From Amoebophrya sp. A120 (lineage: Eukaryota > Protista > Dinoflagellata), in NCBI GenBank assembly GCA_905178155.1, contig CAJINV010000001.1:1035326-1099325 (forward strand): a DNA stretch of 64,000 nucleotides, read 5' to 3'. The first letter of the stretch is position 1. The number at the start of each line of letters is the position of its first letter. Made by a program: the position numbers and the translations under genes. This document shows, in pieces, positions 1 to 63,900 of this stretch. The notes beneath the pieces were generated by a model. The model was not told the DNA's origin and did no database searches. It worked only from the letters and a program-made list of their open reading frames with translations.

Positions 1-3000
1 ACAAGATACTCTTCCTGTTTTCGTCGAGCGCCAGCTTGTTGATCTCCCGCGTGAGCTCCTCGATGGTTGCAGGTCTGTCAAGATCACTTCCACCTTCGGT
101 CTTCTCGCCGAGGACGCGGAATTCCGTCACTGGTGGGAGGGAATCAGGACTGTTGTCTATCTGCATAGAATTCATGTCGTCCGGCTGCTGCAAATAACCC
201 TGCTCCGGTGCGCCGCGGGTCTGCTCTGTCCACCGCCGCATATCGCTATCCACGTCGCTGCGGAACTTTTGACAGATGGTTTGCATCTCAGCCGAGAAGG
301 CCGCGCGCGCGCGCCGGCCGCAGCACGCCCGCGAACACACTTTCCGCGCCTGCGCGGCCAAGCCCTTCACCGCGGCGCTGCACAGGCTGGAGAGACTTTG
401 CTCCCAAATCAAATCGCAACCTTCAACCCGGACATTCCACTGGTCCGGCCGGCCGGTCTTCGCAAACACGCTGCCGCCCGTGAAAATGAATCCCAGGGGA
501 AAAAGCGTATGCGGGTTCACCAGGGCCGCGCTCTCCGCTCTTGCAGGACTTATTGATGTTGCCACGGTCGGATTTATATTTTCCTTGTTGGCAGGTGGTG
601 ACGATGTTGCGGACTGATAACTTCCTTCCCTCGTCGTGAGGTCGTTGTTTCCTTGCAAAAACCCGCGCTCAACTGCGGGCGAGGAAGCGGTTGCAGCAAA
701 ATTTGCCTGATCATCAACATGAACTACATCATCATCATCATCCCGAACAGCATCCACTGCCACTTTTGATGAAGAGGCGCCAAAATCATCATCCGCAGGA
801 GTATCAGCGCCGGCACTCGGCTCGGACACCTCCGTTGTCTCGGGCGACGGGTTTTGACTCAATTCCGGAGCATTATCGCCACGAGGACCGGGAGTTGTAT
901 TTTTACACGAAGATGGCACGTCCCTACAAGAGATCTCCTGTGGTTGTTCACAACTCGGAGTTGTAGATGACTCTCCGCTTGTCTTCAGGGCGGTGAACAT
1001 TTCCGGGGGTACTAGCCTGAGGTGCTTGGTGGTGGGGGTGGTGGAATAAAGGCTCAGATCCAGGTCCCGGCGGAGGTGCAGGTACTCCCGAAACCATTCG
1101 CCCGTACGCAGGTGGGCCCGATACTCTAAGCTCGCGGCGATGCGTTGCTTGGCGAACTCGTCATCGTCCGCTTCTATCTTAGCCCTTTGCGCCGCCGACG
1201 GGCGGTCCTTCGGCTCGCTCTTTGGCGAGGGCCAGTGTTCAGGGTCGCGCATCTCGCGCTCCACCGCCTCCGCCGCGGCTCGGAAAACCTTTTCCAGGTC
1301 ACGAATGCTGAGAAGTGCTGCGCGACCCGGGCCAGTATTCGCAGAGGTTTTACTATTTTTCCCCCCTACTGTTGATGTTGTCGCTCCGCCTGCTTCTGCT
1401 GGTTTTGTTGCCGAAGGGTTAGCATTTGATGCCTGTCCTCCTGACGATTGGTCGACCTGACGGTCCGGAACAAGCCGCAAATGCTCTACCAGCCGGGCCA
1501 AACTATTCCCCGGGCACCCGAGATGCTGGGACTTGGTGCTCGGAATGCTGTTCGTGTTCCCCCCGCCACGCACGATTTGCTCCGCGATCCACTGGCCGTC
1601 CTGTGTAATATCACAGAGAAAAAAGCTATAGTAGCAGGGCATATAATTTGTATTGCAAAAATGAATACACAGAAAAATTTGTCATGGGCGGCCCCATAGA
1701 ATGCTGGTTAAGATGAAAGATTTTTCTGTGTCTTCCTCTTCATTTACTTTTTTGCATTACAAATATAACCTGCCTGGTGCTTTTTTCTGCGTGATACGCG
1801 AGGGCCACTAGCCAAAAGAAGTACCGCCTTTCCCGCACATTCATCGCGATCGCGCGTTTCGTCCTGCGCCCCGCGAATTTCTGTTCCTCCTTCTTGCGCT
1901 TGCCCGCGGTCACCGGAGCAGCGGGGCTGAAGACCTCGTAGACACTCCGCAAACCGGGAACTTCGGAGAGAAATCGCTCTATCAGCGCGCGCTCGGCAAC
2001 CAAGTGATGCACCTGTAGAAGGATCGTCTGAAACAGAATCAGCATACTGCCGAGCAGATAACAGGCACTCCCCGTCATCGACCGCTCATCCACTAGGCTC
2101 GACAGTGCCGCTCCTGGCTGGTCGTTAATATTATTCGTTTCATCTCTACTACGTCCTCCGCCGCCGGGGGTCGTGACCGCTGGGACCGGACCCACACCCG
2201 CGTTCTTCGGTACCACCGCCCAATTGCGCTTTCCGTACTCGATGCCCGGCCCCAAGGAGATCACGTTCGTCGCACTGCGCTTGCGCAACAAGCGCAGCAC
2301 CGGAGCGAGCAACACCACGACAATGCTTTCCGCGGCCTGTAGCCCCCCGTGCGCGGCGAGGTCGAAGAACGTGGCGGCCGCCGGAGTTTGAGTTGATGCC
2401 CCCTCGCCTCCTCCTGCCCCCGCGAGTTCCCGCGACTCCGCGAAGTCGTATCCTGAGTAAAAACGTCCCCACCCCATAGTCAAGTTGGTAAATCTGCAAC
2501 ACAAATCTGCCAGGTTTGGGAGTTATGCATGACAAGTTTCCATCTGCAGTGTAGTGCTGGTTAGCAAGGGAAGCTGCATGAGAAAGCCACTTTCTCATCC
2601 TGTTTACAGCATTACAGATTCCAAAACACGATTGGGAATGCCTCTCGTAGAGCTGCGCATTACAAACATTCCTGTAATCGCAAATCTGCATGACAACTCT
2701 GGGGTGGGGATGTTTTTACGCAGGATAAGTCGGCGGCGATGCTTTGCGCGATCGGGCCCAGGTGGTGCGCGAAGCTGCTGCAGCCGCTATCCTATGTAAC
2801 AACGCCCCCACCCCAGAGTCAAGATGGGGAATCGGCTAGGCAAATCCACAGGTTTTGGCTGCTTTGCATGACACATTTGCACTCGTAGTGTACTACTGTT
2901 GTTTGAGGTAGTTCAGCAGCATCACAACTCTGGTATATCATGCTGATTGGAGCATGACAAATTTCAAAACAGGGCTAGCTACCGCTTCTCATGGGGCTGC

Positions 3001-6000
3001 TCATGAGAAACATTTTCAGCATGCAGATTTGAATTACAAGTGGGGACGTTTTCCAATACGATACCCGCCGAGCTGACTGTTCGTGGCCGTGGCGAGCCAG
3101 TTCCAAGCCACGACCCGGTGATCGGATCCCTGGAGCTATCAAATGCAAATATGTCTGGGGCTGGGAGATTGCAGGACTTGTCATGCAGGTTTTCCATGAC
3201 CAAGGACATCTGGAATGCGGGGCCTAGCATGACAGATTCTTTGGTGTCTCTATCATGCCTATCCTGCATGAAAAACTCCCTCTTTCTTAACTTGGCCGAA
3301 AGTGGACAGCTTTTGGCACTCATGCAACACAGATTTTTGCATGCTTCAGATTTAGCATGACAAGCTGCATCTTTCCTGACCCAGACGTATTTTCATTTAA
3401 TAGGAGCAGGCTGGTGATCGCCCCCTCCGCCCCGCGGTGCTCCCTCAGCGCGGCCTCCGCGCTCTCCCTTAGCTGCGGTGGTACAACGTCTGCTGCGAGG
3501 ACTGCTGCTGCGTCACGACTCTCCTCTTTTGCACTTCCACCCGCTCCTCCGGTTGTTCGCAAGGCAACAAACGGGTTGCGTTCTTCGTCGTCCGCGGGCC
3601 ACGCTTCGCGGAACAGGGGCACCTTCGCGGGCCCGGGCAGCGACAGTGAGGCCAGCGCGTGCATCATTCCAGAGTGACACCTATGGATTGCAAATATGTC
3701 TGGTCTGAAAGGATGGAACTTGTGATGCTGCATTTGGATTCTACAATGAATCCGTATTGCATGAACAGCAAAAGAGGTCCGATTTTTGCTATGCGGAGAG
3801 GGCATTTCTTCATGCGGTATGAGCATCAGAAAGCCCTCGCAGAATCTCTGGTGCTAGGGCAGGCATCACAGACCCTATGGGTCAAGGTCATGCACAATCT
3901 GCATGACAAACTCCTGCATTCTTCCAGACCCAGACATTTTTGCAACACATAACACCGTCCGCGGCCGTACCGCGAAAACAAAATCCGTCTCTCCCGCACC
4001 CCCAGACTCTCGGCAAATTCCGGCCACACGCCCTGCTGCACCTTGGCGAGCCACTGCAGCTCGTCTATGTGGCCTTTCAGATCGTCATGCTTCAGGTCGT
4101 GATGTTGTTCAGAATTCTCCTGATCATGTGGTGGAAAAGTCTGATGCTTATGATTTTCCGCCCCGACACTGGTGCTCAAATCCGTCCAATTTTGGAACTG
4201 TCGTCCCTCATCTTCCGGCCCGGCGAACGAAAACGCTTGCGCCAAAGTGACGCGAAAGGCGGCCAACGCCTCCACGACGTTGTCCCGGTGCCACGGGAGC
4301 AGGAGGTTCTTGTTACCGCTACTGTTTATTTCATCGTCTGTGAGTAGTTCTTGCACCGGAAAAAATTTTTCCGCTCTAGAAGAAACATCAGGGCCCTGGA
4401 GATGATGAGACGTGGATTTATTTTCCTCGTCAGGAACTGCAACGTCGCTCTCAAGACGCCTTTTCTTGTTAGCCCTGCTGACCAGGAGCCCCGTGTGGTG
4501 CAGGAACGCGTTGCTGCGGCGCAACAGCGCGCGTCGGTCCGCGGGCGTTGCGTCGCGGAGAAACGCCTTGGTAAAAGCATCGACGGTGTCCTCTTCGTCG
4601 CCTTGTAGCTCCAAGAGACGGCGAAGCACCACCCAAATCAGCAGCCGCGCGTTCCCCAGCATGTTGCTCTCATTCGCCACCTGCTTCGCACGCTCGTTGC
4701 CCTGCTGGCCGGTCGCGGCCTCCGTCGCCTGGATACCAAAATGAAAAATCCCCCCTCCCCATATTGAAACGGAAACTTCTGTTGCTGGATTTGTGTAAGT
4801 ACGCAAATCAGCCCTGTCTTGCAGCGAGGCACTGCAGGCAAAGCCTCAGCCTGCGTAGGGGTGTTTTGTTGTAGGCGCTTGGCATAGGAGAGGCCTGCCA
4901 TGTAGGTGAAACAGCATTACAAATCGCCTCCATAAGGCGGTGGATTCTTTGGGTTTGCCTTTTTGCAAGACAGATGTGATTTGTGACCTCAAATCCGCAA
5001 CACAACTTTTTGGAAACATACCTTTTCGATATGGGGAGGGGGGATTTTTCCTTGCAATACTGGAGGATCTGTCGCTTCTGGTCCTCCACCGTGGCCATGG
5101 TTTCCAGGAGCCCCATATCGAATGCAAATGTGTCTGGGTCTGGGAGATTGCAACCTGTCATGCTAAATTTGAATCATGCAAAAATCTGTGTTGCTTGAGT
5201 GCCAAAAGCAGTCCACTTTCGACGAAGTTGGGACGGCGCTTCTCATGCAGGAGAGGCATGACACAGACATCACAGAGTCTGTCATGCTTGGTCCCGCATT
5301 CCAGACCTCATGGATCATGGAAGACCTGCATGACAAGTTTACGCTCTTCCAGACCCAGACATATTTGCAATGCATACCCCACCCCGGCGTACAAAAAGTG
5401 CGTCGCGTGCGCCACGTACCGATCTGCGAGTTGCTATCCTGAGCAAAAACGTCCCCGATCCCAGAGTTGTTTATACAGATCTGCAGGCTTAAAATGTCTC
5501 TCATGCGAAGCCTCATAAGACACATTTTCTAGTGGTCTTTATTTGAGATAGTAATTTGCAATGCTCGAAAGATAAGCATGGTAAGCTAGATCTGCGATGC
5601 TGCTGCACTTGCTAAGCCCAAATTTGTCATGCGCAACTAGCTTGGTGATTTGTCTAGCAGATTTCCCATCTTGACTCTGGCGAGGTGGGGACGTTTTTAC
5701 CTATGATAGCTGCACCAACCCCTGGCTTAGGCCGCCGAACGGGCCCACGTCGCCCCAGTTTTTTGCAGTCACGTCCATCATGGCACCGCACAACAGCTGC
5801 TCGTTGTGGCTGCGCTGCAAGCTGGACAGCACGCAGACCCGCAGAAAAAACCGCAGCGTCGGCAAAACCCGCTCGGCCAAGTGCCGTCGACAAGAGACGG
5901 AAACAGCCCAAGGGTCCGCTGCTGTGCTGCTTCGCGCACCAGCTGCAGGACCACTCTGAGTCTGGCCTGTCGGCGGTGCAGGAGGACCCGCTCCTGTGCC

Positions 6001-7891
6001 GCCGGTGGAACAGCAATCCATCGCCGTAGTTATAATTTCACCCGCACCACTCGTGGTGTGCTCGACTACCGTACCCGCCGATACCTCGCTGGTTTGCAGC
6101 TGTCGCTTCTGTTCACGCTTTTTCGCATACTTCTCCCGTCTCGACAGCTGTGCTGCGCCTACGGAAGGAGGCTGTAGTTCTTGGTCGCGCGGCTCTTCCG
6201 CCTGCTCAATCCTGTCTGGATCTGTTGTTCTTATCGTGCTATCACCCCGCCCCCGCATTCCGCTCAGGCCGACGTTCGTGCGTTTCGGCGGTTCAACCAG
6301 GAGTGAGAAGCTCATTTCCAGTGAACTCAACAAAGTCAGCGTCCGGGAGGTCTCGCCCACTCTCTGCGCGCGGGAGAGTAGACTCCCCGGCTCCTGACGT
6401 AGGTGATGTCCTCCTCCACCAGAATCAATATAAACGGATGGTGCAGCAGGAAGTGCTTCTGTGCCACGATCTGTTCCACCACCGCTCCATCCCGACTTCT
6501 TTCGCAGTCGTCTGTAGCCCCTGGTGGGGCCTAGGTGCTCCTCGGAGAAAAATCCGGCGTGCGCGAGCTGGAACGCGGTGATCAGGTACCGCAAGGCCTG
6601 CGCCTGCTGGTCCGCGTCCGCGGCTTCCGGGCCCTCGCTTTCGCTCGCGATGGCCTCCACCCCGGGGAAGTTGGCCTCGCGCTCCGAAAACACGCGCGCC
6701 TGCTCCACCAACTGCTGCACCGTGTCGAAGTAGCGGGGGAGGGGCAGGCCCAGTAATTCCGCCCGGGTTTCCTCTCCCAGCCCCAGGCACTCCTCCTCCT
6801 GGTTTTCCCACTCCGGGATGGGCTGCGCCAGCAGGTCACTCACAAACGCCGGCGGCACGTCTTCTAATGGAAATTGCAACAAAAGGAACCCGTGCTTGGG
6901 TGGGGCGGCGGGTCCGAGGTGCCACTGGTCGGGCGCCCCGGGCCCGTCGCAGATGCTCCGTTGAAACGCAGCCTCCACGTTGCGCGTCACGCCGGGCGCG
7001 AACCAGCCGCGCTTCGCGGGCTGGGTCAGAATGCCGAGTCCGAAAAAACGCGACGGGGGTGCGGCTTCCTCCTGGCAGGACCTCCCCGGGGCGGCGGCAA
7101 CCGCGCGATCGATCAGACCCTGCAGGCTACCCGCTTCCAACGCGCGGCGCTCCACGAGTTCCAGCCCGAACAGATTGGTCACCTGTGATAAAAACATCAA
7201 ATGTATAGGAGGTCCTCCACTGAGAACGATAGCAGTAGTACACAGTGGTGCAGGTAAAACTAAAAGCATCTTCAAGCGCAGAAGGAACCACGATCGCCGC
7301 CGTAACAAGAACTACATGAGCAGCCCGGCCCTGGATTCGGATCCATCTATCAGCCCTCAATATCTATTTCTATTCATTCATGAGCGCCCTCTTCGTGTAT
7401 TTTTGACTTAGGTAGAACCTTGCACCGGCGTGAGAATCTAATCTTCGCTTGTCACATGTCAATATTTTTTGAGTCAACCACACCAGCAAACGTGAACAAT
7501 TACAATTTACCTTCACCGCTGTCCCCCGCAAAAGACCGACAACGTCTAATGCAGCGGCTTTTTCCTCCTCCGCTTCCCCTGCACTTTTCCAGAACGCATC
7601 GCTCCTCAGATCCGCTTCGACCCAAGATGTCGCAGGAGCTGCCGCGTGCTCTTTATTCCCTACTACAACTTCTTTGGACGACAATTTGCCGCTCGCAGTT
7701 GCCGCAGCCCGGCCTACTGACCCTTCCCGCGAGGAGGGCCCTGCTGCGACAACGCATTGGCTCTTGCCCTGCTCCTGGTCTACTGCTCCGGTGAACAGGC
7801 AGAGCAACCACAGGCGGACCTTTGCCGCGAAGGAGGAACGACCATTTTTCCGCGCGCTCGTGCCATGGCCGTGGGATTGCGTCCGAGTCAT
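1..7891 (-). CDS. Large multi-exon hypothetical protein (3' end runs off the window)
   Basis: ATG at 7891; GT-AG intron 7183-7510 (AVK|VTNL). Seven TIR elements (5435, 5116, 4734, 3682, 3137, 2788, 2449) each restore the frame when removed with one DR (e.g. LVQ-LADRY, AGVG-LLET, QILQ-ATEA, GRC-HSGM). Probable GT-AG intron 1457-1769; frame then open to position 1. No recognisable domain. Confidence 0.75.
2449..2727. mobile_element. TIR introner family B
   Basis: TATCCTGAGTAAAAACGTCCCCACCCCA...TGGGGTGGGGATGTTTTTACGCAGGATA; DR AGTCG/AGTCG; frame restored (AAD-FAES). Confidence 0.9.
2788..3063. mobile_element. TIR introner family B
   Basis: B-type TIRs; DR GCCGC/CCCGC; frame restored (LGG-CSSF). 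Confidence 0.85.
3137..3402. mobile_element. TIR introner family A
   Basis: TATCAAATGCAAATATGTCTGGG...CCCAGACGTATTTTCATTTAATA; DR GGAGC; reverse orientation relative to the 5116 copy. Confidence 0.9.
3682..3951. mobile_element. TIR introner family A
   Basis: A-type TIRs; DR ACACC/ACACC. Confidence 0.9.
4734..5059. mobile_element. TIR introner family C
   Basis: TACCAAAATGAAAAATCCCCCCTCCCCATAT...ATATGGGGAGGGGGGATTTTTCCTTGCAATA; DR CTGGA. Confidence 0.9.
5116..5376. mobile_element. TIR introner family A
   Basis: A-type TIRs; DR CCCCA/CCCCA. Confidence 0.9.
5435..5708. mobile_element. TIR introner family B
   Basis: B-type TIRs; DR GTTGC/GCTGC; reverse orientation relative to the 2788 copy. 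Confidence 0.88.
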
Positions 7892-8076
7892 TCTCTGACG
7901 CTAGGAAAACCTGTGCTGCACTGCGAGATACCGCTCCGTCAGCATGTGCGCGATGGCGACGGGCGGAGCCGGAAGCTGCAACGGCTTCGAGATACAAAAA
8001 TAAGTAGCCCAGTGAATATACAACAAGATCCTACACACTACCTCCTCTGGAGTCCGACTCTGAACTGCCGAATACA

Positions 8077-8936: not shown

Positions 8937-10442
8937 TTAACGCCCGGGAACGCGCTTGGCGCCCTGTGAAGCTCCCGCTACGACGGTTTTCTTCCCGCAG
9001 CTTCCCATGCTACCCGCACCCCGTCTCGTCCCGCGAGCGTCGGCAGAACCGCCACCAATTGTGTGTATGTTCGCCTGTCCCGGCGTGCACGTCGCAGGTG
9101 GCAAGTCGCACTCTTTGTCCTTCCCCACGACCCGCCGGGCCTTCTCTACGCGCTCCCGTTGTTCGTCCGTCATAGTGCTCTTGCCGACGTCCTCCAGGCG
9201 ACGTGCGGTTGTGCCTATGAATTGCAAAAATGTTTGGGTCTGGAAGATTGAAGCTTGTCATGCTAAAACCAAATCATGCAAAAATCTGTGTTGCATGACT
9301 GCCAAAAGCTGTCCTCTTTCGACCAAGTTGGGTGGGAGTTTCTCATGCAGGATAGGCATGGCAGAGACCTCGCAGACTCTGTCATGCTAGGTCCTGCATT
9401 CCAAACCTCATGGGACATGGAAAATATGCATAAGAAGTTTGCACTCTTCCAGACCCAGACATATTTCCATTTGATAGTGCCCTGGCTCTGTCGGTACGCC
9501 GCCGTGGTGTTCCGCAGCGTGCTGCTGGACGAGGCTGCGGATGCGCGTCCGGCAGCTGCTGGTTGTGGCACAATATCAGCCAGTGTCTTCACGTTATTTC
9601 TATTTTTCATCCCGTCACCCGCAACCTTAGGCTTTTCCGATCCGCGGGCCGCGTTCAACGCGGCGTTGTCACCTGACGAATCACGAGAAAATGCGCGAAA
9701 CACACATTCAGGATCAAGCGAAACTCCGTTTCAAGGTAGGGAACCCTTAATATCAGGCAGCGCTAGTGGCGATTTTCGTAGCAGTACTAGAGGGAGCCAC
9801 CCTACAACCTATTGCAGAAGCAGCACAAGATAAATATCGAACGATACGAGGTCGTTGGGACGCGGGTGGGACTCTCTCCCTCGCATTCGCCCGTCGAACT
9901 TCCCCTTCCGCGCTGTGGTGCGCCCCGTACAGCGACGAGAGCTCTCCGCGCACAGTGGCGGCGACCGTGCTACTACCGTCATCAGCGCCCGCTGCGCTTC
10001 CCCTTGTGGCGGTTCTCCCGCTGTTTGCCACGGCCCGGCGGCTCTCCTCCACCGATACCGCTGCGCGGCCCGCAGAGGGCGTGAAGCCGACGGCACCTGC
10101 TTTCTGCAGCCGGTTCGAATGCACTGTCTGGCCCGTCCCGAGCACGCGCGCGCCTTCCCGGATGCGCGTCGGTGCTGTTGGAGGTGTTGCTCCCTGAGCG
10201 CTGGACACCGCACCAGCATTCCCTTTCGATTCAACAATCGCCCCCGGTGCGCGTTTTTGCCCAGACGCTGTCAGTATTTCCGGAACTACTTTGCTCCGCG
10301 AACCATGAGTTGCCTGCTGTACTGACGGGCCTTCGCTTGCGCCTCCAGTTGTAGGTAGTTCTGTTGCCTCCTTGTTCCCATAGCAGGCAGAATTCAGCAG
10401 CTTTGCCAGGCGCGCCTCTCGATCTAGCATTCCTGTCGGCAT
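8937..10442 (-). CDS. Low-complexity Ala/Ser/Gly/Arg-rich hypothetical protein
   Basis: ORFs 9753-10490, 9263-9703 and 8937-9227; the last two join in frame (SQGT-TARR) after removing the 9216 element; junction near 9750 unresolved. Confidence 0.5.
9216..9476. mobile_element. TIR introner family A
   Basis: A-type TIRs; DR GTGCC/GTGCC. Confidence 0.9.
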
Positions 10443-11453: not shown

Positions 11454-14400
11454 TTACGCCCCCGGGGTCATCTTCAGGCCCAAACTGGTCATGTACTCTG
11501 ACAGCGCATCCTTGGCCTTCTTGAGGTTGTCGATCTCCTCTGCGAATGAAGCACAAAAACCTTTGGGTGGTCTTCTGAAGAGGACAAAGGACAAACCACT
11601 ACCAAGGTCATCTTCTTGATCTTTTCATCTGTTGCTATTTCGACGCATGTTCTCCTTGCATAAGTAGCTCCTCTCTTTTTTTCGGCTTCTCCTTACTTCA
11701 TGCCCACTTCCAATACAGCTTCATCACAATATATTAGTTACAACGCAGTAGTACCTCTAGCTCGATAAAAACTTCGGACGTGGAAGATTTTTTGTCCTCC
11801 AAAGAACTACCCAAAGAAGTTTTTTTCCCTATTTTCCGGGCCTCCATGCGGCTGGCGTACATGGACTTGTAGTCCTTGCACTTGGCGTCATCACCCGTAA
11901 CCACCTTGACCATGGTGGCCTTCGTGGTGTCCAGATCGGATTGCACGACGCGGAGGTCATCCGACTTGGACAGCGATTTTGCCGTGTTGTCCTTGAACCC
12001 GAGTTTGTTGCGCTTCTCGATGAGCTGCAACCGCTTCAAGTTCGTCTGGTGGTCTTCCTCTTCGTTCTCGATCGCGGCGCCCAGCTCCTTCTCCACGCGC
12101 TCGCTCTCCGTCATGGCGTATCAGAATGAAAACCCCCCCTACCCATATCAAAACGAAGGCTCTGACGCTGGCTTTGCGTACACAAATCAGATCTGTCTTG
12201 CTGGCGAGGACTGCAGAGCCATGCTGAGCCTGAGTAGACAGGTTTTGACCCAGGCACTGAGCATGGCAGACGTCTGCGCTTCAGGCGCAACAGCATGACA
12301 AACCGCCTGTAGAATGCGGCGGAGCCTGTGGAGTTGCCTTCATGCAACATAGAGACGATTTGTGGTCACAAATCAGCAACACAAATTTTCGAAAACGTGC
12401 CTTGTATATATGGGGAGGGCGGGTTTTCCTTTTGATATGGCGGCCTGGTACTTTTCAATCACCTTGTCCACCTCGTTCAGCACGATCTCACCGCCGGACT
12501 CCGTGCGGCCCTTGAACACGTTGGTGAGGGCGATCTTGGCCTGCTCCAAATTGCCGAAATCCTCTTTCAGCTGCTCCTGCTCCACCTTATTGGCGTCCAA
12601 ATCCTGCGTCAGTTGGTCGTGCGCCTTCACGTTGTCCTCCACCGCCTTGTTAATGTCCGTTGTCGCCTGTTCTGCCTTGTCCTTGTGCGAGGACGCGGTG
12701 TTGTCCAGAGCCTCAATGGCCTGCTCCAGCTCCTCCTTCGTGGTCTCAAGATCCTGAATGCGCAGGGTGAGCTCGTTGTCCTTCTGCTGGCACCAGGTCT
12801 TGGAGAAAAATGGAAACGAAAAATCCGAAAGCGATTGTGAACAGCCTGTCTTTTTCTTGATCGTGTCCATGTGCGAGTTTCAGCTCGTGACACCAAAAAT
12901 ATTATTGCATGACAGTTTATTGTCCGGGTCTTTCGACAACCTGAAAGCGCAAAAACGGGGGTAAGTTGTACTTTGGCAGTAGAAGGGGACTTCTTGTTGT
13001 TTACCGCAATAGAAAAAAGCCGCTTTTTGTTCGCTTGGATTGTGCAAGGATAACTTCTGGTCCTCTTCCTGTTGCTTGTACATAGTGTCGGACAATTTGT
13101 CGATCTCGGAGGCGATCTTTGCAAAAGCATCGGCAGCACCTGCAAAGGAAAGAATGTTAATGTTGCAATAAACATGTTCTTGTTGCCGGTTTTTGATTTC
13201 TACACTGGTGCCCGCGCATCTAAACCGACAGATAAAAGCGACCAGATTATCCAAAAATACCGTACAACTCTTTCAAAGCTTCGAATGGCGACATCAATTC
13301 CTAAACTTACTCCTACTACCTGGCTTCTGGTCCAGGGCCAGCTTGAGCATCTCGGCCGCGCGGCTCTTTCCGGACATCGTGGCGAGGAGGTCCAGCACCA
13401 CCTTATTCGGGGCGCTCCGCATCTGCAGGAACCCCGGCACTACGGTCTTTTGCTGCAGCAGAATCGTTTTCTCAGCCTGCAACAACGCGGCCGCGGCGGA
13501 GGGCTTGCCCAGAATGTCCAACGCGGCGGACAGAGCCTTCACGCGGTTGTCCGCGTCCTCGATCTCGCCCTCCAACGCCATGCGCTTCTCCGCGCAGGAA
13601 GCCGTCTTCGCCTTTTTCGACGCCTTTTCCGCATTCAGATTGGAGATCGCGTCCGCCTTGGCCTTCTTGGCCGCGTCCAGCTTTTCGCCCTCGTTGCTCA
13701 AAAAGATGGTCAGCTCCTGAATCGCCCCGTCGTGCGCTTCAATCTGCAGCTGCATCGTCGTCTGTGCCTCCGCGTGAAATTTCTCGCCCATGGTGATGTC
13801 CTGAGAGAGAGATGAAGCATATGGATATTTATAAATTTACTGCGCTCAAAATAAAGCGCAACTCCAACTTCTTTATTTCAAGATTGCAAGGGCATCTTCA
13901 AAGGTCGTGGCATCGGAGTTCAGAAGAACATACAATATGTACTTCAAAACACATTTTTCTATACATCATCGAGTTTCTTCTGATCTTCGAGCATCTTGTC
14001 GCGCAGCAGCGACATGGTGGACGCCAATTTGGACTTGGTCGAGTCGGCGAGCGTTGTGTCCGCCTTGATCTTCGTCATGGCGTCGTCCAGTCCTTTCGTG
14101 GCCCCCTGGAGCTGCCCCATGTCGTAGCCCATGCGGGCCTTCGTCTTTTCGTAGGTGGCCTGCGCCCCGGCTTTGCTGGTCTCGGCAGCATCCTTCAGCT
14201 GCTCTTCCTTCGCCTTCTTGGCCTCCGCGCCCTCAATGGCTTTCTGCGCATCCGCCTCCGCAGCCTCGGCTTCAGTCTAAAGAACAAGATGAAATTTAAA
14301 AATTTTTGGAAACATTTATTCCGCTGCTCCTGATCAACAGAAATGCGCCATACGATTAGAAGTAAAAAATGACTTCGGCTACATCTACAAACAACATCTG

Positions 14401-38075: not shown

Positions 38076-38080
38076 TGAGA

Positions 38081-49932: not shown

Positions 49933-50058
49933 GGTTGTTAATCAAAAAGGTAACTTATAAAAATTCCGAACAGGAATAGACGCAATCGATTCTCTATGTA
50001 CTATTCCGATGCGCAGTAGAAGTCGGTGTGTTCTTTAAGTGTAACGCTTTCAGTACTT

Positions 50059-50250
50059 AGTTTCAAAACAGTAGCTTCAGTAGTTTCAAAACAGTAGTTT
50101 CAAAATAGTAGTTTCAAAACAGTAGTTTCAAAACAGCACTACTTTCAAAACAGCACTAGTTTCAAAACAGTAGCTTCAAAACAGTACGTAGCTTCAGTAG
50201 TTTCAAAACAGGAGTTTCAAAACAGTAGCTTCAGTAGTTTCAAAACAGTA
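50059..50250. repeat. Minisatellite of TTTCAAAACAGTAG-like units
   Basis: About 11 copies of (T/C)TTCAAAA(C/T)AG interspersed with CTTCAGTAG. Confidence 0.9.
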
Positions 50251-52304: not shown

Positions 52305-55300
52305 TCAGCTGGACGCCGTGGACATGGCCACGCAAACGCCGTTCCTGGCTTTGTTGCGGCAGTCGTGGCCGTGCGGTAGGTCGTCTACGCAGTTGTGGTG
52401 TCCCGGGTTGGCGTATGCAATGCAAAAATGTCTGAGTCTGGAAGAATGCAGACTTGTCATGCATATTTTGTATGATGATTGATGTCTCTGATGCATGATC
52501 TAGCAACACAGATTTTTAGGGGGCTTCCTAATGCCTATTCCGCATGATAAATGCCCTCTCCGCGTAACACAAACTGGAGTCCTGTTGCTGGTCATGCAAA
52601 ACAAATAGATTTTTTTGGAATCCAAAGACAGCATTACAAGTTGCAACCTTCCAGACACAGACATTTTTGCAATCCATATGGCGCAAAACATCAAGTTTCC
52701 CGCGTCTTCCTCCCAGGGCGGGATGTAGCGTATGGAAGTGTCAGAATCGAAATTGACAAAATCGAAAAATTTCTGATGCACAAAATCGATGTCAGTTGGA
52801 GCCTCAGTTTTCAATTGGCGCATGACAAATTTCGGGAGTGCCCAAATCCAGTCTGTCATGCTGATTGGGCAAAGAAGACTCCGCCTGTAATGCTACTCTG
52901 GCAGCACATTGTATACCCCTAAACAGGCTCACAATCGGTCTCATTTGCCTGCTCCCCAATACAGGCCTTCAGTGCCCTGCATTTTATGCATCACAAATTT
53001 TTCGATTTTGTCGATTTCGATCCTGACACATCCATATAGCGCGCCCGGTGCGTATCCCGTGCAAAAACATCCCTGCCTCAAAGTCAAGTTGGTATTAAAT
53101 CTGCAACACAAATCTCCAAGTTAAGGGAATTGCGCATGACAAGTTCTTTCCATCTCCAGTGTAGTGCTGGTTAGCAAGGGCAGCCGTATGTTGAGAGAGC
53201 CATTTTCTCATCATATTAATTTGCAGCATTACAACTACCAAAACACGATTGGAAATGCCCCTCACGCAGAGGCGCATTACACATGTTCCTGTCATTGCGT
53301 ATTTGCATGACAACTCTGGGGCGGGGGCGTTTTTGCTGAGGATAGTGTGTGTAGATGCCCTCCCCGTACCACTCGCTGACGTTTCTCCCCGGGTGGTCCA
53401 TATCAAATGCAAATATGTTTGGGTCTGGAAACTTGTAATGCTGCGTTGGGAATAGTGAATGCTCTGTAATGCCCAGCCAAGCATGAGAAATATCTGCGCT
53501 TCGTTGTGTTGCGTTTTTCGCCTGACAAACTGCGTTTTTGCATGACTGACGAAAGGGTTTCTTCTTGGACACGCATCACAAACTTTTTGGCCATCCCAGA
53601 CAAGCATGACAAATCTCGCAATCTTCCAGACCCAGACATTTTTGCATTTGATAGTCCATCACTGGGAGCCACCGGCCCTCGATCTCCATTTCCCAGATGT
53701 CGGTGGGAAATTTCTCTGCGCGCTTGTTCAGCTCCAGAAGCTATCAACTGCAAAAATGTCTGGGTCTGGAAGAGCCGGCACTTGTCGTGCACATTTTGCA
53801 TGACCCGTGAGGTCTGTGATGCTGGTGCTAGCATCACAGATTTTTTGACAGCTTCTTGATGCCAATTACGCATCAGAAATGCCCTCTCCGCGTGCCAAGA
53901 ACTGACTCCTCTTGCTGCTCATGCAACACAGATATTTTTAGAATTCGCAGACAGCATTACAAGTTCCACTCTTCCAGACCCAGACATATTTGCAATCCAT
54001 AGCAGCAGGTAGTTGAACTTGTTCGCCTGCAGCAGGTATCCTGTGCAAAAGCAGCGCACTCGTATTGCGGTCATGCATTACAACTCTTTTTCTTCAGCAG
54101 GTAAGTCCGCATTACAAATTTTACTTATCACGCTGAGGAAATTTGTAATGCATTTATATTATAGACAATAGACACCCATAATAGCTCGTAGAACCCTGTC
54201 AGCTTCCACCAAGTGAAACATCAATGCATTTATATTACGAGTACGATACTTTTGCAGTTCATAGCAGGTAGCTCCGACCGCCCTCGTGCAGTCGCAGGTG
54301 GTAGCCGGCCTTCTCGATCCACGGGCGGAGCGACTATCAACTGTAAATCTGTCTGGGTCTGGGAGATTGCGATATTTGCCATGCAAGTCTGGTAATATGA
54401 CTCTGCAATCTGTATTGCGTGGCCGCGAAGACGCGCTCCTCTTGCCTATCATGCAAAAATGCACTTGCTCATGCGGAGTACGCAACTCACCACCACGGAA
54501 AAACTTGTCATGCTGGACAGCGCATCACAGAGTGCTCACTCTTCCCTTCCTTGCATCACAAGTTTCCAGACCCCCAGGGATATTTGCAATGGGTAGGGAC
54601 TCCAAACGGTCGAAACTGTCGTCGCGAATGTGAAAATCCACGTCCCCGTCCCAGTCGAGCATATTACAGTGAAAAATGCCCCCACCCTCAAAGTGTGATG
54701 CGAAGTTTCCAAATGACGCCTCTTTGTCATACATGAAAGGAGTATGAATCTTTCTGATGCAGAGTCTAGGCATTTATCGCATCGCTTGCATGACAAGCGC
54801 CGCTCTTGCTGGGGTCTTTTGCAATACAAATTTTTGCCATTCACGATTGGAAACCTGTGATGCTGATAGATGCAAGAGGGCGAATGTTTCATTTGGAAAG
54901 GTTTGCAATACAAATGCTCCCAAGTTCGAGGGTGGGGGCATTTTTCATTGTAATAGAGCAGGGCACCAAGTTTGAGGCCGCCGAGCAGGGCGCCGTCCGT
55001 GACGATATACTCGATCTGGTGCTCCTTGAACAAATTGTCGGCGAACACAACCAAGTCCCACAGCGTCCGCTTGCAGCAGGGGGGAATCGCCCACCCCTTG
55101 TAGAGCCAGTCCATGGGACAGTTCGGGGTGCGCAGCGTGCAGCCGTACTGGCGGAGTTCCCCGTATCCACAGAAAAAAAAAACCATTTGGCATGCAAAAC
55201 CTGCAGCAAGTCCAGTGTTTGTCATGCAAAACATGGATGCGGATGGTTTTTTTTCTGGGGATACCCCGTCGATCGTTTCGATCTCCTTCAGGTCATTCTT

Positions 55301-58300
55301 CTCCAAAAACTCTTTCACTTGGCGGTCCAACCCCGTTTGGCTGCCTTGCGGGAGCAGGTTTGGCGCCCAGTGCGCGAAACCCCGGCTCAAGCCGCTCCGG
55401 AACCAGAAGTCGACGTCGGCTTTCACCCCACTGTACAAGTGGCGCCACTCAAATCTCGGAACGAGTTGCAGCAGACCCTGCTTTATCAAATGCAAATATG
55501 TCTGGGTCTGGAAGGATGCAAGATCTGTCATGCTTGTCTGGCATGACTGAAGAGTTTGTGATGCGTGTCCAAGAAGAGACCCTGTTGCCTGTCATGCAAA
55601 GCCGCAGACTGTCATGCGGAAAGCGCAACACCAAGCAGCGCAAATATTTCTCACGCTTGGCTGTGCATTACAGAGAGTTCACTACTCACAACTCAGCATT
55701 ACAAGTTTCCAGACCCAGACATATTTGCAATCCATATGTTTCGAGTTCTCTGTTCTCCTCTTCCCGGGTGCATTTTTATTTTCATCGTTCTCCCTACTCT
55801 CCGTTGTACCTACTATTACGCCGGGGGCAGCTGCACGACCACCGCTCTCTTCTTTCACCACGCCGGCATGGGGATCAGAAATTGCGGAGTATTGAAAGGC
55901 CGGCATGGGGGTCAAATACCCGCCAACACACTGGGCAAACCCGTGCTCCTTTCGATCGTGCCACGAGTGGCGGAGGAACCAGTCCAACAGCGTCCACTCC
56001 CCATCCAGCGACACGCGGAAAGGCATGCCCTCGGTCAGCAGCCTCGTCCGAACCAGAAACGTCGGCGCCAGCGTGTCGCAGGTCTTGCAGCTCTGCAGCT
56101 CGTGCGCGAGAAAGGGTTCGTGGTAGCTGCGCACCGAATATCAAAAGCAAATTTACTTATGTCTGGGTCTGGAACAAGAGTGCAAGATTTGTCATGCATC
56201 TCACGCGGACCACGTACATGGTCTGGAATGCAAACAGAAGCATCACAGATTTTGCGAGACCTTCCGGATGCCGCTCCTGCATGAGAAATGCGCCTTTTGC
56301 CTACCAGCGAGTGGGTAGCTTGTGGCGTTCATGCAACGCAGACTTTTTTGTAGTCGAAATTTTGCATGACAAGTTGCAACTTTCCAGACCCAGACATATT
56401 TGCAATGCGTACCGAACTGCCGTGGCGGACGGCGCCATCCTCGTGCATGCTCACCCGGGTTTCCGGCGGCAGGAGCTCTGGGTGCATTTTGTCCCGTGGG
56501 ATGGTGTAGGACTCGTAGTTATCCTGAGCAAAAACGTCCCAACACGAAAGGCAAGATGGGAAATCTGCTAGACAAATCAACGTTTCGCATGACAAGTTTG
56601 CCCTCATAGTGTGATCCTGTTTCGCTAGTTCAGCAGCATCACAGGTCTAGCATATCATGCTGTTTCTAGCATCACAAACTCCAAAACACGACTAGAAACT
56701 ACTTCTCATGGGGCTCCGCATAAGAAACTTTTTTGGCATGCAGATTCGCATGACAACTCTGGGGTGGGGACGTTTTTGCTCAGCATAGTAGTTGCGGGAA
56801 AATTTCAAAACCCAGTGCTTCGCCTCCAATTTGTGGCAAAAATCGAGCACGCGCTTTCGGGACGTTGCGGAAACGGGGGAGGAGTAGGCTGATGTTGTAC
56901 CACTTTTAGAAGAACTCACACTACTTCTTGCACGAGGACCTCCAATGCTTTCTCTTTCATCTACGTGTTGTAGTTCCACCGGTGCCGAGAGGCCGGAGAA
57001 ACTCACGCCGCTGAGATATCCGTCGTCCTGCTCGAGCACGTGCAGTAGCCGCTGCAGGTCGTCGCGGCTGGGGACCAGCTCGGACGCCACGACGAGCGTG
57101 AACTCGGTTTCTACCCGCGCAGACAGGTAATTGAGCTTGGCGCCGAGGGAAAGTTGCCGTTCCTCTAGCGATTCGGGAAAGAGGAAATCGGGAGTGTTAT
57201 TGCGAGGAAAAATCCCCCCTCCCCATACCAAAAAGGGGCAGTACTGAAAATTTGCGATGCTGATTTGTGACCACAAATCGTCCCTGTATTGCAAGAGGGC
57301 AAAGCCAGACAATCCGCCGCGTTGCCCCGGCACTTTGTAATGCTGTATCGCATACAGATGATATGCCTGCCCTGCTAGGTGCCTACAGCAAAACGCCCCT
57401 ACTCAGGCGTTGCATCTGCCTGCAGTCCTCTACTGCTAGACAGATTGGATTTGCGTACACAAATCCAGCATCACAGATTTCCATTTTGATATGGGGTGGG
57501 GGGATTTTTCATTTTGATAGGTGTTTTTCTTGTTCTTTCCCCCTACTTCCAGCAAGTGCGAGAACGACACCGCGGAACTGGCGTCCGCGAAGGGCGCAAG
57601 GATGGTCACGGTATCAAATGTAAAAATGTCTGGGTCTGGAAACTTGTAATGCTGCGTTTGGAATAGTGAATGCTCTGTAATGCACAGCCAAGCATGAGAA
57701 ATATCTGCGCTTCTTTCTCTTTGTGTTGCGTTTTTCGCATGACAAACTGCGTTTTTGCATGACACGCAAAAGGGTCTCTTCTTGGACACGCATCACAAAC
57801 TTTTTAGTCATGCCAGACAAGCATGACAAGTCCCGCAATCTTCCACACCCAGACACTTTTGCAATCCATACACGGCGCCTTTTCGCAAACCACCTGCTGC
57901 GCCTTGTTGCCCAATCGACGTCCCCGCTCGCAGTTCTACTTCGTCCGGAGTGCGCCCCATCTTCTTGTCCGGAGGCGCAACACCGGAATCTCCGAAAATC
58001 GCCAGTTGATTGGCGATTCTTGGGGGCGGAAGCGCGGATACGGCGTGCAGGTTCTCCTTCTGGTAGGTGTCGTGGAGCAGTTCCAGGGCGTCCACGGTCT
58101 TCACGTGCCACTTGCTGTTGTCGAGCACGTAGCTCTTCTGCAAGGCCTCCCGAACCAGCCAGCGGTGCCGCAAATGGGCCGTCGTGTTGTGCGCCAGGGC
58201 GATGCTCGCCGCCTGCACGACGCCGTTGGGGCAGAGCATGTTCAGCTCGTGGTACCGGGTCTCGAACGCCATGTTATCAAGATGAAAAATCCCCCCTCCC

Positions 58301-59456
58301 CATATCAAAATGGAAACTTCTGATGCTAATTTGCGTACACCAATCCGACTTGTCTTGCAGTAAGGCACTGCGGCCGGATCCGCAGCCTAGGTGGGAGCGC
58401 GCAGGTCTAGTTGCTCAGCATTGCAAACGGCTACCCGCTGGGGCCAACAGCATGCCAAATCGCTTCCACAATTGGGCGGATGCCTCTGCACTTGTCTTCT
58501 TGCACGACAAACCTGATTTGTGGTCACAAATCAGAAACACAAATTTTCGGAAACATACTTTTTCAATATGGGGAGGGGGGATTTTTCCTCGCAATACATG
58601 GTCTCCGTAATCCAGGAGGACCACGCCACCGCCTCCGGGCCGCACAGCACGCGGAACTGCATCTCCTCGTAGCGGCACTTATCAACTGTAAAAATGTCTG
58701 GGTCTGGAAGAATTCATGTTTCTCATGCTTGTCTGGCATGACTCTTAAATCTGTCACGCACGTTGCCCAAGGGCTCCGTTTTTCTGTGATGCCGAAGCGC
58801 AGTTTGTCATGCAGAATAGGCAACACCTAGGAGCTCAGAAACTTGTCATGCTGAGCCGGCATCTATAGCCTCACCATGAGACGCCACCCAGCATCACAAG
58901 TTTCCAGACCCAGACATTTTTACATTTGATAGCACTGCTGCTGGAGCAGTGCGAAGTAGGCCGTCCAGTCGACCAGATCCAGTTCGGGGTGCCCGTATCA
59001 AATGCAAACATGTCTACTGGGTCTGGAAGATTCATCCGAGAGTTGTCATGCAGTTTTTGCTAGCTCCCTCAAATCTGGGGTGCGGGTCCTAGCATCACAG
59101 GTTCTGCTTCTGCAGCCCCTTCGTGAAGATGCCTGTTCTGAATGAGGAATATCCTCTCAGCATGGCCAAAAGTGAGCACCTGTTGCCAGTCATGCAACAC
59201 AAATCTACTTCGTACGATCCGCAAGTCGCATCACAAGTTCGGATCCTTCCAGACATCCAGGGATATTTGCACTGGATAGCCCGTCAAACGTGCACATAAT
59301 GGTGGACTCCATGCTCGTGTCCTTCTTCTTCTCCGTCGTTGTACCACCATGATTCTCCTGCGCGTGCGCTGGACGAAAATAAACGGTGTCAAAGTTGTAA
59401 AACACCAGGAGCAGACGAAAGAAACCGAAAACGAAGCAGAAACTACTGAAGACCAT
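52305..59456 (-). CDS. Fukutin-related (FKRP)/LicD-family phosphotransferase, 18 exons
   Basis: After removing 17 introners: IETIDGELRQYGCTLRTPNC...PPCCKRTLWDL...[26 protein letters not shown], matching the LicD/FKRP motif (PPCC...GG.LLGA.R....PWD.DVD); N-terminal signal/anchor; C-terminal CANPGHHNC. Confidence 0.85.
52414..52678. mobile_element. TIR introner family A
   Basis: DR TGGCG/TGGCG. Confidence 0.9.
52731..53036. mobile_element. TIR introner family G
   Basis: ~50-bp TIR TATGGAAGTGTCAGAATCGAAATTGACAAAATCGAAAAATTT; DR TAGCG. Confidence 0.9.
53053..53344. mobile_element. TIR introner family B
   Basis: DR GTGCG/GTGTG; similar to the 2449 copy. Confidence 0.88.
53401..53653. mobile_element. 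TIR introner family A (A2)
   Basis: DR GTCCA/GTCCA. Confidence 0.9.
53742..54001. mobile_element. TIR introner family A
   Basis: DR GAAGC/GCAGC. Confidence 0.88.
54037..54263. mobile_element. TIR introner family M
   Basis: TATCCTGTGCAAAAGCAGCGCACTCG...CGAGTACGATACTTTTGCAGTTCATA; DR GCAGG. Confidence 0.85.
54335..54595. mobile_element. TIR introner family A (A2)
   Basis: DR GCGAC/GGGAC; LES-LRPW restored. Confidence 0.85.
54662..54955. mobile_element. TIR introner family H
   Basis: TATTACAGTGAAAAATGCCCCCACCCTC...GAGGGTGGGGGCATTTTTCATTGTAATA; DR GAGCA; splits [11 protein letters not shown]. Confidence 0.92.
55164..55263. mobile_element. 100-bp mini TIR introner (family L)
   Basis: TATCCACAGAAAAAAAAAACCAT...ATGGTTTTTTTTCTGGGGATA; DR CCCCG. 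Confidence 0.85.
55484..55736. mobile_element. TIR introner family A (A2)
   Basis: DR TGCTT/TGTTT. Confidence 0.88.
56139..56411. mobile_element. TIR introner family A
   Basis: DR CCGAA/CCGAA. Confidence 0.88.
56520..56787. mobile_element. TIR introner family B
   Basis: DR GTAGT/GTAGT. Confidence 0.9.
57198..57519. mobile_element. TIR introner family C
   Basis: DR AGTGT/GGTGT; reverse orientation relative to the 4734 copy. Confidence 0.88.
57612..57870. mobile_element. TIR introner family A (A2)
   Basis: DR CACGG/CACGG. Confidence 0.9.
58275..58596. mobile_element. TIR introner family C
   Basis: DR CATGT/CATGG. Confidence 0.88.
58680..58931. mobile_element. TIR introner family A (A2)
   Basis: DR GCACT/GCACT; similar to the 41016 copy. 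Confidence 0.9.
58996..59278. mobile_element. TIR introner family A (diverged)
   Basis: DR GCCCG/GCCCG. Confidence 0.85.
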
Positions 59457-60945: not shown

Positions 60946-63900
60946 TCAAACTTTACTGTCGACGTAAGAGCGTTTTTGCAAAAACTCGTCCTCCTCGTCA
61001 TCGTCACTCGCTGAGTCCCGCTCCGACGGATCAAAATTGAACTCGTTTTCTTCCGGATCCCCCAGCTCCGCGAGCTCCGTTTGATGCTCCACCATCGGCG
61101 GGGGCGTCGGCGCATTCATGAAATTCAAAATCGAAATCCCCAAAATCAAGGAGATCAACCCGATGGTCACCATCTCCAGGACGTTGCTCTGTTATTTTTG
61201 TTTAGATCAGGTTTTTATTCGTCAATGTTGAAAGCGGAGCGGACATCACCTTTTGATGGATAGTTCGTTGTGTAGCTCTTAGAACGCTGCCAACTATAAA
61301 AAAAAATATCAAGAAAAAAAAACAGTAGCCCGCCGATTGTACCCCGCCCCCTGCCGGCTCCGGATTGCGCAGCAGCAAGTAGTCGCCGATGTAAACATTG
61401 TATGAGAATGCACAACTCACCCTCGTTCTCATTTCTCATGCAAAAGCCCAAATCCAGTTGTAGTTGCCTTGTATCACTATAAATGCATGACAAATTCCGG
61501 AAGCGATCCAACCAGTACTACATCAGGCACATAAATTTGCCATGCATAGGCTCCACGAAGTGTGCTGGTGTTTGTACTGCTGTTCATGCGATACATATGA
61601 GGAGGAGGGGGAGTTGTGCACTCTCCTACATTGCACACGGCACCGACAGCCTGTCCCAGCGTTCGGTACACTGAGCTCAACTGCTTGGTGATAATTCCGG
61701 CCATCCACATTTGAAAGCACTGCGCAAAAATCGGCACCAACAGTTTCCAGCACCAGCCTTTAAAGAAACCCCCCTCGTAGGGCGCAAGCACACCATTCAC
61801 AGCCACCGGAGTCTTGTAATACCTGCGGATTTATGTTCAAGTGTAATCTTTGCTTTGGACCTTTGAATCTGTGAAATCTCGTAAGTATTTCATTCGGAAC
61901 CACATCTTGCGGATAGCAGCATTAGTGCACTCGCATCGCCGTGTTAGCAGTTGTACTGCCGCAAGAACTACTGCGGCTGCATCCAGACGATACGAACAAA
62001 ATCTTCCGTTTTGACCGGAATTTCTAAAAAAACTAAAAGATTATTTGCCCGCCAAATTATTTAGCTTTACGCCTGCCCCATGTAGTTGTCCCTCCAACGG
62101 TCCGTCCACTCGCGTTTGCAGATCACGGGATCGCAGATGATCGGGCAGCTCTCTACCGGCCCCTCGTTCCCGGGCGAGTAAAGGCCGCGCATCAGATATC
62201 CTGAGCAAAAACGTCCCCGCCCCATAGTCAAGATGGGGAATCTGCTAGACAAATCAGCCAGCTTTGGTTGTTGCGCATGACAATTTTGGCCTCGTAGTGT
62301 AATCTTTTTTAGCTTGTTCAGCAGCATCACAGACCTAGCCTAATATGCTGATTGGAGCATTACAAATTCCACAACACGAAGAGAAAATGCCTTTCATGGG
62401 GCTCCGCATGAGAAACATTTTGAGCATGCAGATTTGCATGACAACTATGGGGTGGGGACGTTTTATTTACTCAGGATATCAGAAAAATCGTGCTCTGCTC
62501 CTCCATATCAAATGTAAAAATGTCTGGGTCTGGAAGATTGCAACTTGTCATGCTAAATCTGCAGCATGCAAAAATCTGTGTTGCGTGAGTACCAAAAGCT
62601 GCCCACTTTTGACCAAGTTGAGAGGGAGTTTCTCATGCAGGATAGGCATTAGAGAAGTGTCGCAGAATCTGTCATGCTAGGTCCTGCATTCCAGACCTCA
62701 TGGGTCATGGAAAAGCAGCATGACAAATCGCGCATTCTTCCAGACCCAGACATTTTTACATTTGATACTCCAGGGGAATGCGCGGCTGGGCATCGTCCTC
62801 GTCGTCGAGGCTTGCTATCGCAAGAAAAAACTGTTTCACTGTGAACTTGTGATGCAGAAAACGAAGCACAGAACTATTTGTCTTGCTACACATGCAAGAC
62901 AGTTGATTTTCAGCTGTGTTTTCCCTTAGGAAGCTTGCATGGCAACTTTTCTCTGTCATGTAGAACAAACTTGTGATGCAGAGCCTGCAAAACCCTTACA
63001 GTGAACCACTTTTTTCATATGATACTTGCTGGTGGCTGACTAGTACCAGGCCCGGTCCTGCTCGCCGGTAGAGGTTCAGGGTCGACTTGGTTGCCCGAAC
63101 TACCGTTGGGGGATGATGTTGTAGTACCTGGTTGCGAAGCTGAAGCGGACGAATAACTTGGCACGGCAAAGCGGTTCTTCAGATTTTCTAGACCCGAGTC
63201 GGTTTCGGGGATTACCAGTTGGTCCGGCTGGTCCACGTCTTGCCGCAGCTCTAGCAGGGCGTACAGCCCCTGGTCGCGTAGAATTTCCGCTACCTCCTGT
63301 CGCAAGGGGGCTTCGGCCTGCTCGCGCTGTGCCTCCGACGTCCACGCGGAATTTTCGTCTAGCCCGGCGCTTTTTACGCCGAGGACCGAATAGTTGGGAC
63401 TTATCTCGCGCTCGGCGATGCGGTCCTTCAGTAGCTCCCTCCCATAGTTCATCAGTCGCCACTTTCTGTCCAGATGCACCCAGCAGGTGTGTGTCGCGTC
63501 CTCCTCCACCCACTGGATGCCGCTCCCGTACACCGGCGTGCTGTCATGCCGGCCGACGATGGGTCCCGCGGCGACCGCGCGGGGGCTGCTCTCTTCGGGC
63601 GGGAGCACCGGGTAATTGTTTATGTTGTTGGAATCGTTTCCGTTTTCGTCACTGCTGCTGGGGGGAGACCTGTTTGCTCGTGGCGACAGCGGCAAGTGGC
63701 CGAAGGCCGTGTTGCTGCCGGACTTGGGCGTCGGGACGCGGCTGGGGTCTACGAAGACCGTGGGACGCAGGACTTTCTTCGCGCGAAACGTGTTGAAGCG
63801 ACAATATATCAAAAAGAAAAATCCCCCCTCCCCATATCGAAAACGAAATTTGTGATGCAGTATTTGAGGCGTGAGGCGTAACATGATCGCACTCGGAAGA

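Follow-up and report, generated by a model that had tools for sequence, protein, structure and literature searches.

Introners of the dinoflagellate Amoebophrya sp. A120 are described in the text of PMC7789003 as non-canonical introns of ~240 nt whose ends read TAT, seven nucleotides and AAA and which carry short direct repeats, in a genome with ~30,000 repeated introns for which a general transposase-driven movement was argued against. Excerpts of PMC12130899 sort them into families of 106, 149, 208, 252/260, 278, 305 and ~320 bp and describe them as DNA elements with terminal inverted repeats (TIRs) whose superfamily is unassigned. Here, a stretch of 64,000 nucleotides of A120 DNA (contig CAJINV010000001.1, positions 1,035,326 to 1,099,325 of the forward strand; hereafter the window) was analyzed, in which an 85-amino-acid ankyrin piece is 99% identical to an Amoebophrya sp. 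A120 protein. Its short TIR elements agree with the introners in ends, direct repeats and non-canonical removal, as these are set out in the text of PMC7789003, and their lengths match the published family sizes in the 22 of 58 rows compared (PMC12130899). What they add is a short internal motif that is found in all 11 family consensuses, is selectively conserved and is phased along the DNA at 10.44 bp, the phasing being the main new result. The elements contain a conserved, orientation-independent, B-DNA-phased array of sites within TIR elements that have random 5-bp targets. While the setting, introners, is known, this grammar is apparently new: the text of PMC7789003, figures aside, describes terminal repeats and no internal motif or spacing rule, an internal motif is not mentioned in the text of PMC12130899 or in its supporting text as searched, and neither motif nor phasing is mentioned in the text portions of PMC11282704, PMC10368747 and PMC3408717. 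Literature searches that included the motif 8-mer gave no paper on it among the matches listed.

The window elements were listed by TIRs and flanking direct repeats alone, blind to the motif, which gave 59 candidates. Five were dropped, either for weak or uncertain ends or, as for that at 48749, to be set apart as decayed, and the 54 kept were joined by three added by eye to give a final set of 57 elements of 100–328 bp. The target-site duplication (TSD) is a perfect 5-bp repeat in 33 of them and has one mismatch in 21, with no extension to 6 bp, and no target-site preference of the insertions was found. TAT-N7-AAA ends are present in 50 of the 57 at one end or both, and at both in 38, which qualifies the statement of the initial annotation that the TIRs of different families do not align; the TIR logo of 409 elements likewise shows TAT, seven variable positions and a run of A, where the TAT was demanded by the finder. 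TIR positions 4–10 are highly variable, with a few variants that recur across families and between both ends of one element and may reflect exchange between element ends, while positions 11–13 remain A in all families. The window elements belong to the known class of A120 introners, having both its published marks (TAT with seven variable bases and at least three A, and a 3–5 nt boundary direct repeat). Being short, multicopy, flanked by TIRs and TSDs and without coding capacity, they also have the features of MITEs, or non-autonomous TIR transposons.

The motif GCAWNACA, reported in the initial annotation to recur several times per element, has 216 matches on both strands of the window compared with 22.7 ± 4.7 expected (none of 100 shuffles reached 216), and the 54 elements with TIRs and TSDs contain 189 of them (9.0 ± 3.1 expected). 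After masking of the 57 elements and of five more that are partial or decayed, 203 matches fall inside TAT...ATA elements (17.8 kb) and 13 in the 46.2 kb outside (12.9 ± 4.1 expected), and four GT-AG introns contain none, such that the motif is enriched over background in the elements, is not enriched in host DNA and is as rare elsewhere as had been claimed. At least one copy is present in 55 of the 57 elements, with a median of four. Both example sites given earlier are exact, TGTCATGC at 5156 being the first of a tandem pair (5156–5194, minus strand, sites at 5156 and 5187, 31 bp apart) and GCATGACA at 5328 lying 42 bp inside the right element end (5328–5335, plus strand). A site starting 30–60 bp inside the end, also noted before, is found with a relaxed motif at 79 of 114 element ends in the window and at 591 of 730 in further loci, the outermost sites being 33–56 bp from the element ends, and the fading of the motif in the decayed elements at 22012 and 48749 was borne out (one copy each). 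The core of the pattern stood and its details were corrected to GCAWBA(C>G)A with RRT appended, A being disfavored at position 5 (3 seen, 2.8 expected) and G being allowed at position 7.

An independent set of elements was obtained from 145 further loci (~0.8 Mb, overlaps included), fetched from contigs JACKZZ01... of another assembly with a 20-base TIR pattern in the part of the collection that was scanned. None of the 25 longest matches between loci and window exceeded 691 bases, and the loci are accordingly further sites of the same families. Three matches of the TIR pattern on viral contigs (with five, five and zero motifs) were taken as chance and excluded. The motif-blind finder, which gave eight false matches per 533 kb of reversed sequence, recovered 365 elements in 22 clusters, a set biased to family A, which served as bait. 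For the consensus tests families with fewer than five members were left out and up to 90 members per family were aligned. GCAWBACA followed by RRT was present in all 11 consensuses, with two to seven sites each. Once the motif cores were randomized, the consensuses fell into about seven groups without mutual alignment, those still aligning being A1 with A2, f4 with f5 and f7, and, weakly, f2 with f9; two families have a common TIR and are 69% identical over ~150 bp, and patches of 36–67 bp are common to a few. The earlier description of the families as otherwise unrelated therefore holds for the seven groups and fails within these sets.

Selective conservation of the motif was evident in several measures. 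Its columns are 0.87–0.94 conserved, compared with 0.68–0.90 for other interior columns, and are higher in all 11 families, and the median site lies at the 98th percentile of 8-base windows for conservation, which falls at the fifth, degenerate base. Substitutions were then counted on trees of nine families, with expectations by context from the interior rate. The fixed motif positions show 43 changes on internal branches where 327 are expected (0.13) and 240 on the tips where 614 are expected (0.39), while the degenerate positions show 0.75 of the expected change on internal branches and tips alike. The ratio of motif changes rises from 0.34 to 0.49 in copies with damaged TSDs, and is 0.28 in 165 copies that were missed by the end-finder compared with 0.19. 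The motif is under selective conservation.

The spacing of the sites, a plot of which was proposed with the initial annotation, follows a helical rule of which that annotation contained no trace. Each family consensus was given one vote, and the expectation was whole turns between parallel sites and half turns between inverted ones. Same-strand pairs 31–33 bp apart number 16 and occur in 10 of the 11 families (null 2.05; the best 3-bp window of the null averages 5.7), and inverted pairs 15–17 bp apart number 10 (null 2.6), the spacing being 15 bp head to head and 16–17 bp tail to tail, with one half often degenerate. The coherence of phasing is 0.56 compared with 0.08 ± 0.06, a value reached by none of 5000 random layouts, and free fitting puts the period at 10.44 bp (bootstrap 10.30–10.54) and the inversion offset at 5.25 bp, whereas the coherence at an 11-bp period is −0.02. 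In a joint test with half-turn inversion over 8–17 bp there was a single peak at 10.25–10.75. A pure 16-bp lattice was rejected: it fits the same-strand and tail-to-tail classes singly as well as 10.5 does and fails the joint half-turn test. Removal of the 31–33 and 15–17 bp pairs left a coherence of 0.44 over 75 pairs, which are not independent of those removed. The phasing survives when adjacent pairs alone are counted, is present in every one of the 12 sets made by taking a single family from each of the seven unalignable groups (0.51–0.65; none of 600 nulls each) and was replicated in the window alone (0.41–0.42), for which the tally of site pairs gives 45 at 31–33 bp and none at 9–18 or 21–22 bp. 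Moreover, of 14 tandem units in which no middle site was called, 6 contain a hidden, degenerate inverted half-site 15 bp ahead of the second site (z 7.5 across all uncalled positions). Because an inverted half-site so often sits there, the basic unit is a site, 16–18 bp, an inverted site, 15 bp and a further site, which is intact at 33602–33655.

Taken together, these properties make it highly probable that the motif acts at the level of DNA, and likely that it is a site on double-stranded DNA for a dimeric protein, probably the transposase or a cofactor of it. The common binding site proposed in the initial annotation is thereby retained and extended by its selective conservation, helical phasing and recurrence in unalignable groups, and of the binders listed there a transposase, with a cofactor added, or a chromatin protein acting on DNA stand, while a splicing factor is disfavored. 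In the proposed mechanism, a protein with two-fold symmetry would bind the sites such that its protomers lie along one face of the helix, and the bound array would bend or wrap the 100–320 bp element until the TAT-N7-AAA ends meet and are assembled for transposition. The terminal signature would be the site of cutting, and staggered insertion over 5 bp would give the TSD. With one machinery serving all families, drift would be free everywhere except in the ends and the motifs, and splicing would depend on the ends and not on the motif. Two findings make transposition the most likely function of the binder: the constraint is tightest where a lineage has left copies, and the site is not enriched in host DNA.

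Several observations weigh against this mechanism. The sites occupy the entire interior of the elements, beyond the subterminal zones, and in the TIRs themselves only 1 of 22 ends scores well for the motif. Family B (f4) has a coherence of 0.06, its three 31–33 bp pairs being mutually out of phase, since its pairs lie 48–49 bp apart. The phase of the sites relative to the element ends is weak (p 0.009 and 0.10), and the element lengths of 31 subfamilies are without helical periodicity (Rayleigh p at least 0.47). The motif ratio on the tips is 0.32–0.47 in every divergence bin and never neutral, and the most diverged damaged copies still give 0.42, below 1. Moreover, no transposase was found in A120 according to the text of PMC7789003, neither a transposase nor an autonomous copy was found among the long TAT...ATA elements in the ~0.8 Mb of loci, and Pfam searches of 18 of the 67 long open reading frames (ORFs) of the window gave ankyrin repeats above the cut-off and nothing mobile. 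Six long TAT...ATA candidates were listed (longest ORF up to 151 amino acids), and the five aligned proved to be ends of short families around insertions. The longer elements at L068 11014–11985, L045 3862–4492, L044 571–1051, L068 15916–16411 and L023 10304–10760 have intact ends and TSDs, and the DNA inserted in them is unique among the loci and without a long ORF.

The lack of a detected transposase and the flat conservation of the tips are what would be expected if the sites belonged instead to a host DNA protein of chromatin or transcription, or to a co-transcriptional marker of introns, that was co-opted and is still relevant after insertion. Such a protein predicts equal DNA geometry, and the contrast between fixed motif positions on the tips and TIR positions outside the signature, which are near neutral there (0.91), is in keeping with it, as may be an apparent weak phasing of AT dinucleotides between sites (0.39 compared with 0.17–0.34). 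However, the 46 kb of host DNA and the four GT-AG introns show no excess of the motif, the constraint is three times stronger on copy-leaving lineages, and elements free of the motif are removed all the same. The conservation on the tips could be explained by unsampled transposing ancestry, as only 365 of many thousand copies were seen. A host protein of this kind is unlikely, if worth keeping in mind, and the motif may have a role after insertion.

It is much less likely that the motif acts in RNA, as a signal or hairpin to which a splicing or excision factor is drawn in place of a missing U1. In its favor, the text of PMC7789003 reports that U1 was undetected in A120 and that splice sites are non-canonical, the inverted pairs could make 8-bp stems, and the residual conservation on the tips would fit. 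The period, however, is 10.44 bp and not 11. In 208 elements of the loci with a called strand, in 13 groups, the motif lies on the transcript strand 380 times and opposite to it 394 times with no family biased (the codon-based strand caller was checked on the window only, which overlaps its training set), and the inverted pairs show no hairpin covariation, their degenerate positions matching in 6, 3 and 9 of 10 cases compared with expected fractions of 0.71, 0.40 and 0.87. Evidence on removal came from runs X1–X4, from one sample and regarded as RNA by guess (hence putative RNA), and from X5, a DNA-like run. Over 44001–47335 the depth of X1 and X3 is none or nearly none, while that of X5 is even at 45–51. 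The X1–X4 contigs skip four GT-AG introns, and among 15 listed of their 25 joints all 11 of TAT type skip the element together with 5 nt. The presence of the elements in the DNA is evident from X5 contigs, which pass from exons into them. Two elements without the motif, 19924–20179 and 22829–23035, are precisely skipped in the putative RNA contigs, and the skipped elements of one well-covered gene carry 0, 0, 1 and 1 motifs, although contig joints show removal and cannot gauge splicing efficiency, and so are blind to a quantitative effect. On this evidence the motif is neither strand-specific nor needed for removal, as a splicing signal would be, and the absence of strand bias together with the removal of motif-free elements points to an array that is bound as double-stranded DNA and away from a signal for splicing. 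The proposal that this intron class is defined by the motif is accordingly not supported for splicing, and the motif may instead define the mobile class.

The same joints fix the splice register at four elements with mismatched TSDs (19564–19853, 22007–22271, 22824–23037 and 26661–26966). The sole register that fits all 11 TAT-type joints has the intron starting one base before TAT and ending four bases after ATA, in which the TA of the element forms positions +2 and +3 of a site that resembles a donor (GT at three of the four TSD-mismatch elements and CT at one). The splice position of A120 introners is described as variable in the text of PMC7789003.

Least likely is a passive relic, an ancestral 15/31-bp cassette that was duplicated and shuffled among families and is functionless now, for which the segments common to A1-A2, f4-f5-f7 and f2-f9 speak as real signs of deep common ancestry and mosaicism, but which is largely refuted by fixed positions changing at 0.13 of the interior rate and degenerate ones at 0.75, and is further opposed by spacers between tandem sites that differ among one another and by seven groups that are unalignable outside the motif. 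Common ancestry may explain the origin of the motif and not its retention. Beyond the DNA-level mechanism preferred here, it is conceivable, though rather improbable, that all TAT-type A120 introner families form one system, in which an undescribed transposition machinery, possibly a domesticated host protein instead of an enzyme borne by the elements, covers each element over its full length with a helically phased array of dimers, and in which this footprint is kept by selection after insertion as an aid to the host in marking the elements as introns without U1.

The elements of the window, which are listed without strand, fall into families that differ in length and in the arrangement of their sites (offsets from the element start, with < and > for the two orientations). 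Family A1 is represented by the ~262-bp element at 62506–62767, with sites at 41<, 72<, 126<, 141>, 165< and 213>, and has further copies at 3137–3402, 3682–3951, 5116–5376, 9216–9476, 15956–16209, 23551–23811, 26666–26964, 30339–30603, 30930–31257, 33757–34020, 34623–34896, 37405–37670, 52414–52678, 53742–54001, 56139–56411 and 58996–59278. Family A2 (~252 bp; 58680–58931) has the TIR of A1 and an interior partly related to it, with other copies at 27950–28263, 41016–41267, 53401–53653, 54335–54595, 55484–55736 and 57612–57870. In family B (~279 bp; 2449–2727) the sites at 48, 79, 128, 161, 209 and 240 have a single orientation, and its other copies are at 2788–3063, 5435–5708, 19570–19852, 53053–53344, 56520–56787 and 62197–62478. 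An intron-like derivative of family B, 1.64 kb in length (31463–33106), has three internal repeats of ~470 bp between family B ends; beside it, the loose end of an RNA-type contig at 31290 is continued at ~31408, which is an ordinary intron. Family C (311–322 bp; 23874–24184, sites 45<, 77<, 176>, 228> and 260>) recurs at 4734–5059, 12119–12437, 37034–37344, 49524–49838, 57198–57519 and 58275–58596, with one copy cut by the window end from ~63807, and the copies at 23874–24184 and 37034–37344, which are 97% identical and 13 kb apart, suggest recent local copying. Families D (54662–54955, with copies at 29632–29943 and, decayed, at 43692–44010), E (28318–28549 and 61401–61628) and F (62816–63024 and ~38080–38311) are smaller.

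Among the single-copy elements, that at 33481–33687 has a full alternating array (33602<, 33617>, 33633< and 33648>, in steps of 15, 16 and 15) and that at 37698–37887 has three such sites (37817>, 37833< and 37848>, steps of 16 and 15), while those at 30654–30874, 22325–22563 (skipped in the putative RNA contigs), 41378–41633 and 52731–53036 have two, three, five and four strict sites, respectively. Three strict sites each are present in the 157-bp element at 29404–29560 and the 227-bp element at 54037–54263, and the smallest element found, of 100 bp (55164–55263), has two matches to GCAWNACA. The decayed elements comprise the two without the motif, 19924–20179 (skipped with one TSD copy, 261 nt) and the TAT-type 22829–23035 (skipped, 212 nt), two with one strict site each, 20710–20988 (skipped, 284 nt) and 22012–22269 (skipped, 263 nt), and 48749–49164, with one match, on which the RNA contigs give no evidence either way. 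A TAT...ATA element at 1609–1796 has two sites and an unmatched TSD.

When the elements and one TSD copy were deleted, long minus-strand frames opened, such as those of 871 codons (1800–6400) and 495 codons (55800–59300). Every gene block checked within 1740–63992 reads from the minus strand, in keeping with the co-oriented blocks that have been described in Amoebophrya, and the ankyrin-repeat gene at 27231–35600, which is interrupted by about ten introners, has close relatives in A120 and A25. A different element of 1.6 kb at 42087–43689 has a perfect TIR of ~22 bp starting with TGG, 109-bp tandem repeats and two motif copies of the phased type, and directly adjoins a family D element at its left end. 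Neither a further copy in the fetched loci nor a match in Pfam was found. An intergenic tandem array with a 14-bp unit occupies 50050–50260.

The presence of one phased site in families with different TIRs implies that a single DNA-binding machinery serves most of them, and the signal for mobility, in the interior, is thereby separated from that for splicing, at the ends. The motif provides a bait for isolating its binder and a family-independent mark by which autonomous copies could be found and mobile copies distinguished from dead ones, and the question of what moves A120 introns becomes directly testable. By analogy with Hermes, the A120 elements would behave as non-autonomous TIR transposons equipped with subterminal repeats for binding. 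The hAT superfamily has TSDs of 8 bp, and membership in it is ruled out by the 5-bp TSD. Mu, Tn7 and Ginger/integrase-type elements have TG...CA ends and TSDs of 5 bp or 4–6 bp, and Mu and Tn7 have several internal transposase sites; the 5-bp TSD of the A120 elements lies within that range, and the TAT...ATA ends rule out membership in either the Ginger/integrase type or the Mu/Tn7 type. In the hAT transposase Hermes, BED domains bind short subterminal repeats in both orientations, and quasi-palindromic repeat pairs are bound cooperatively by the oligomeric transposase, as described in the text of PMC10368747. The A120 elements resemble Hermes in having short repeated sites inside the ends, in both orientations and in quasi-palindromic pairs, and differ from it in that the Hermes sites are of 4 bp and belong to one element whereas the A120 sites are of 8–11 bp, are common to families with different TIRs, fill the interior and follow a 10.44-bp phase. 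Paramecium internal eliminated sequences, short transposon relics in genes that are excised from the DNA and have a helically periodic length (text of PMC3408717), show a comparable helical-phase signature of a transpososome acting at the DNA level on short relics within genes, but in A120 the length is aperiodic, the internal sites are periodic and the elements stay in the DNA.

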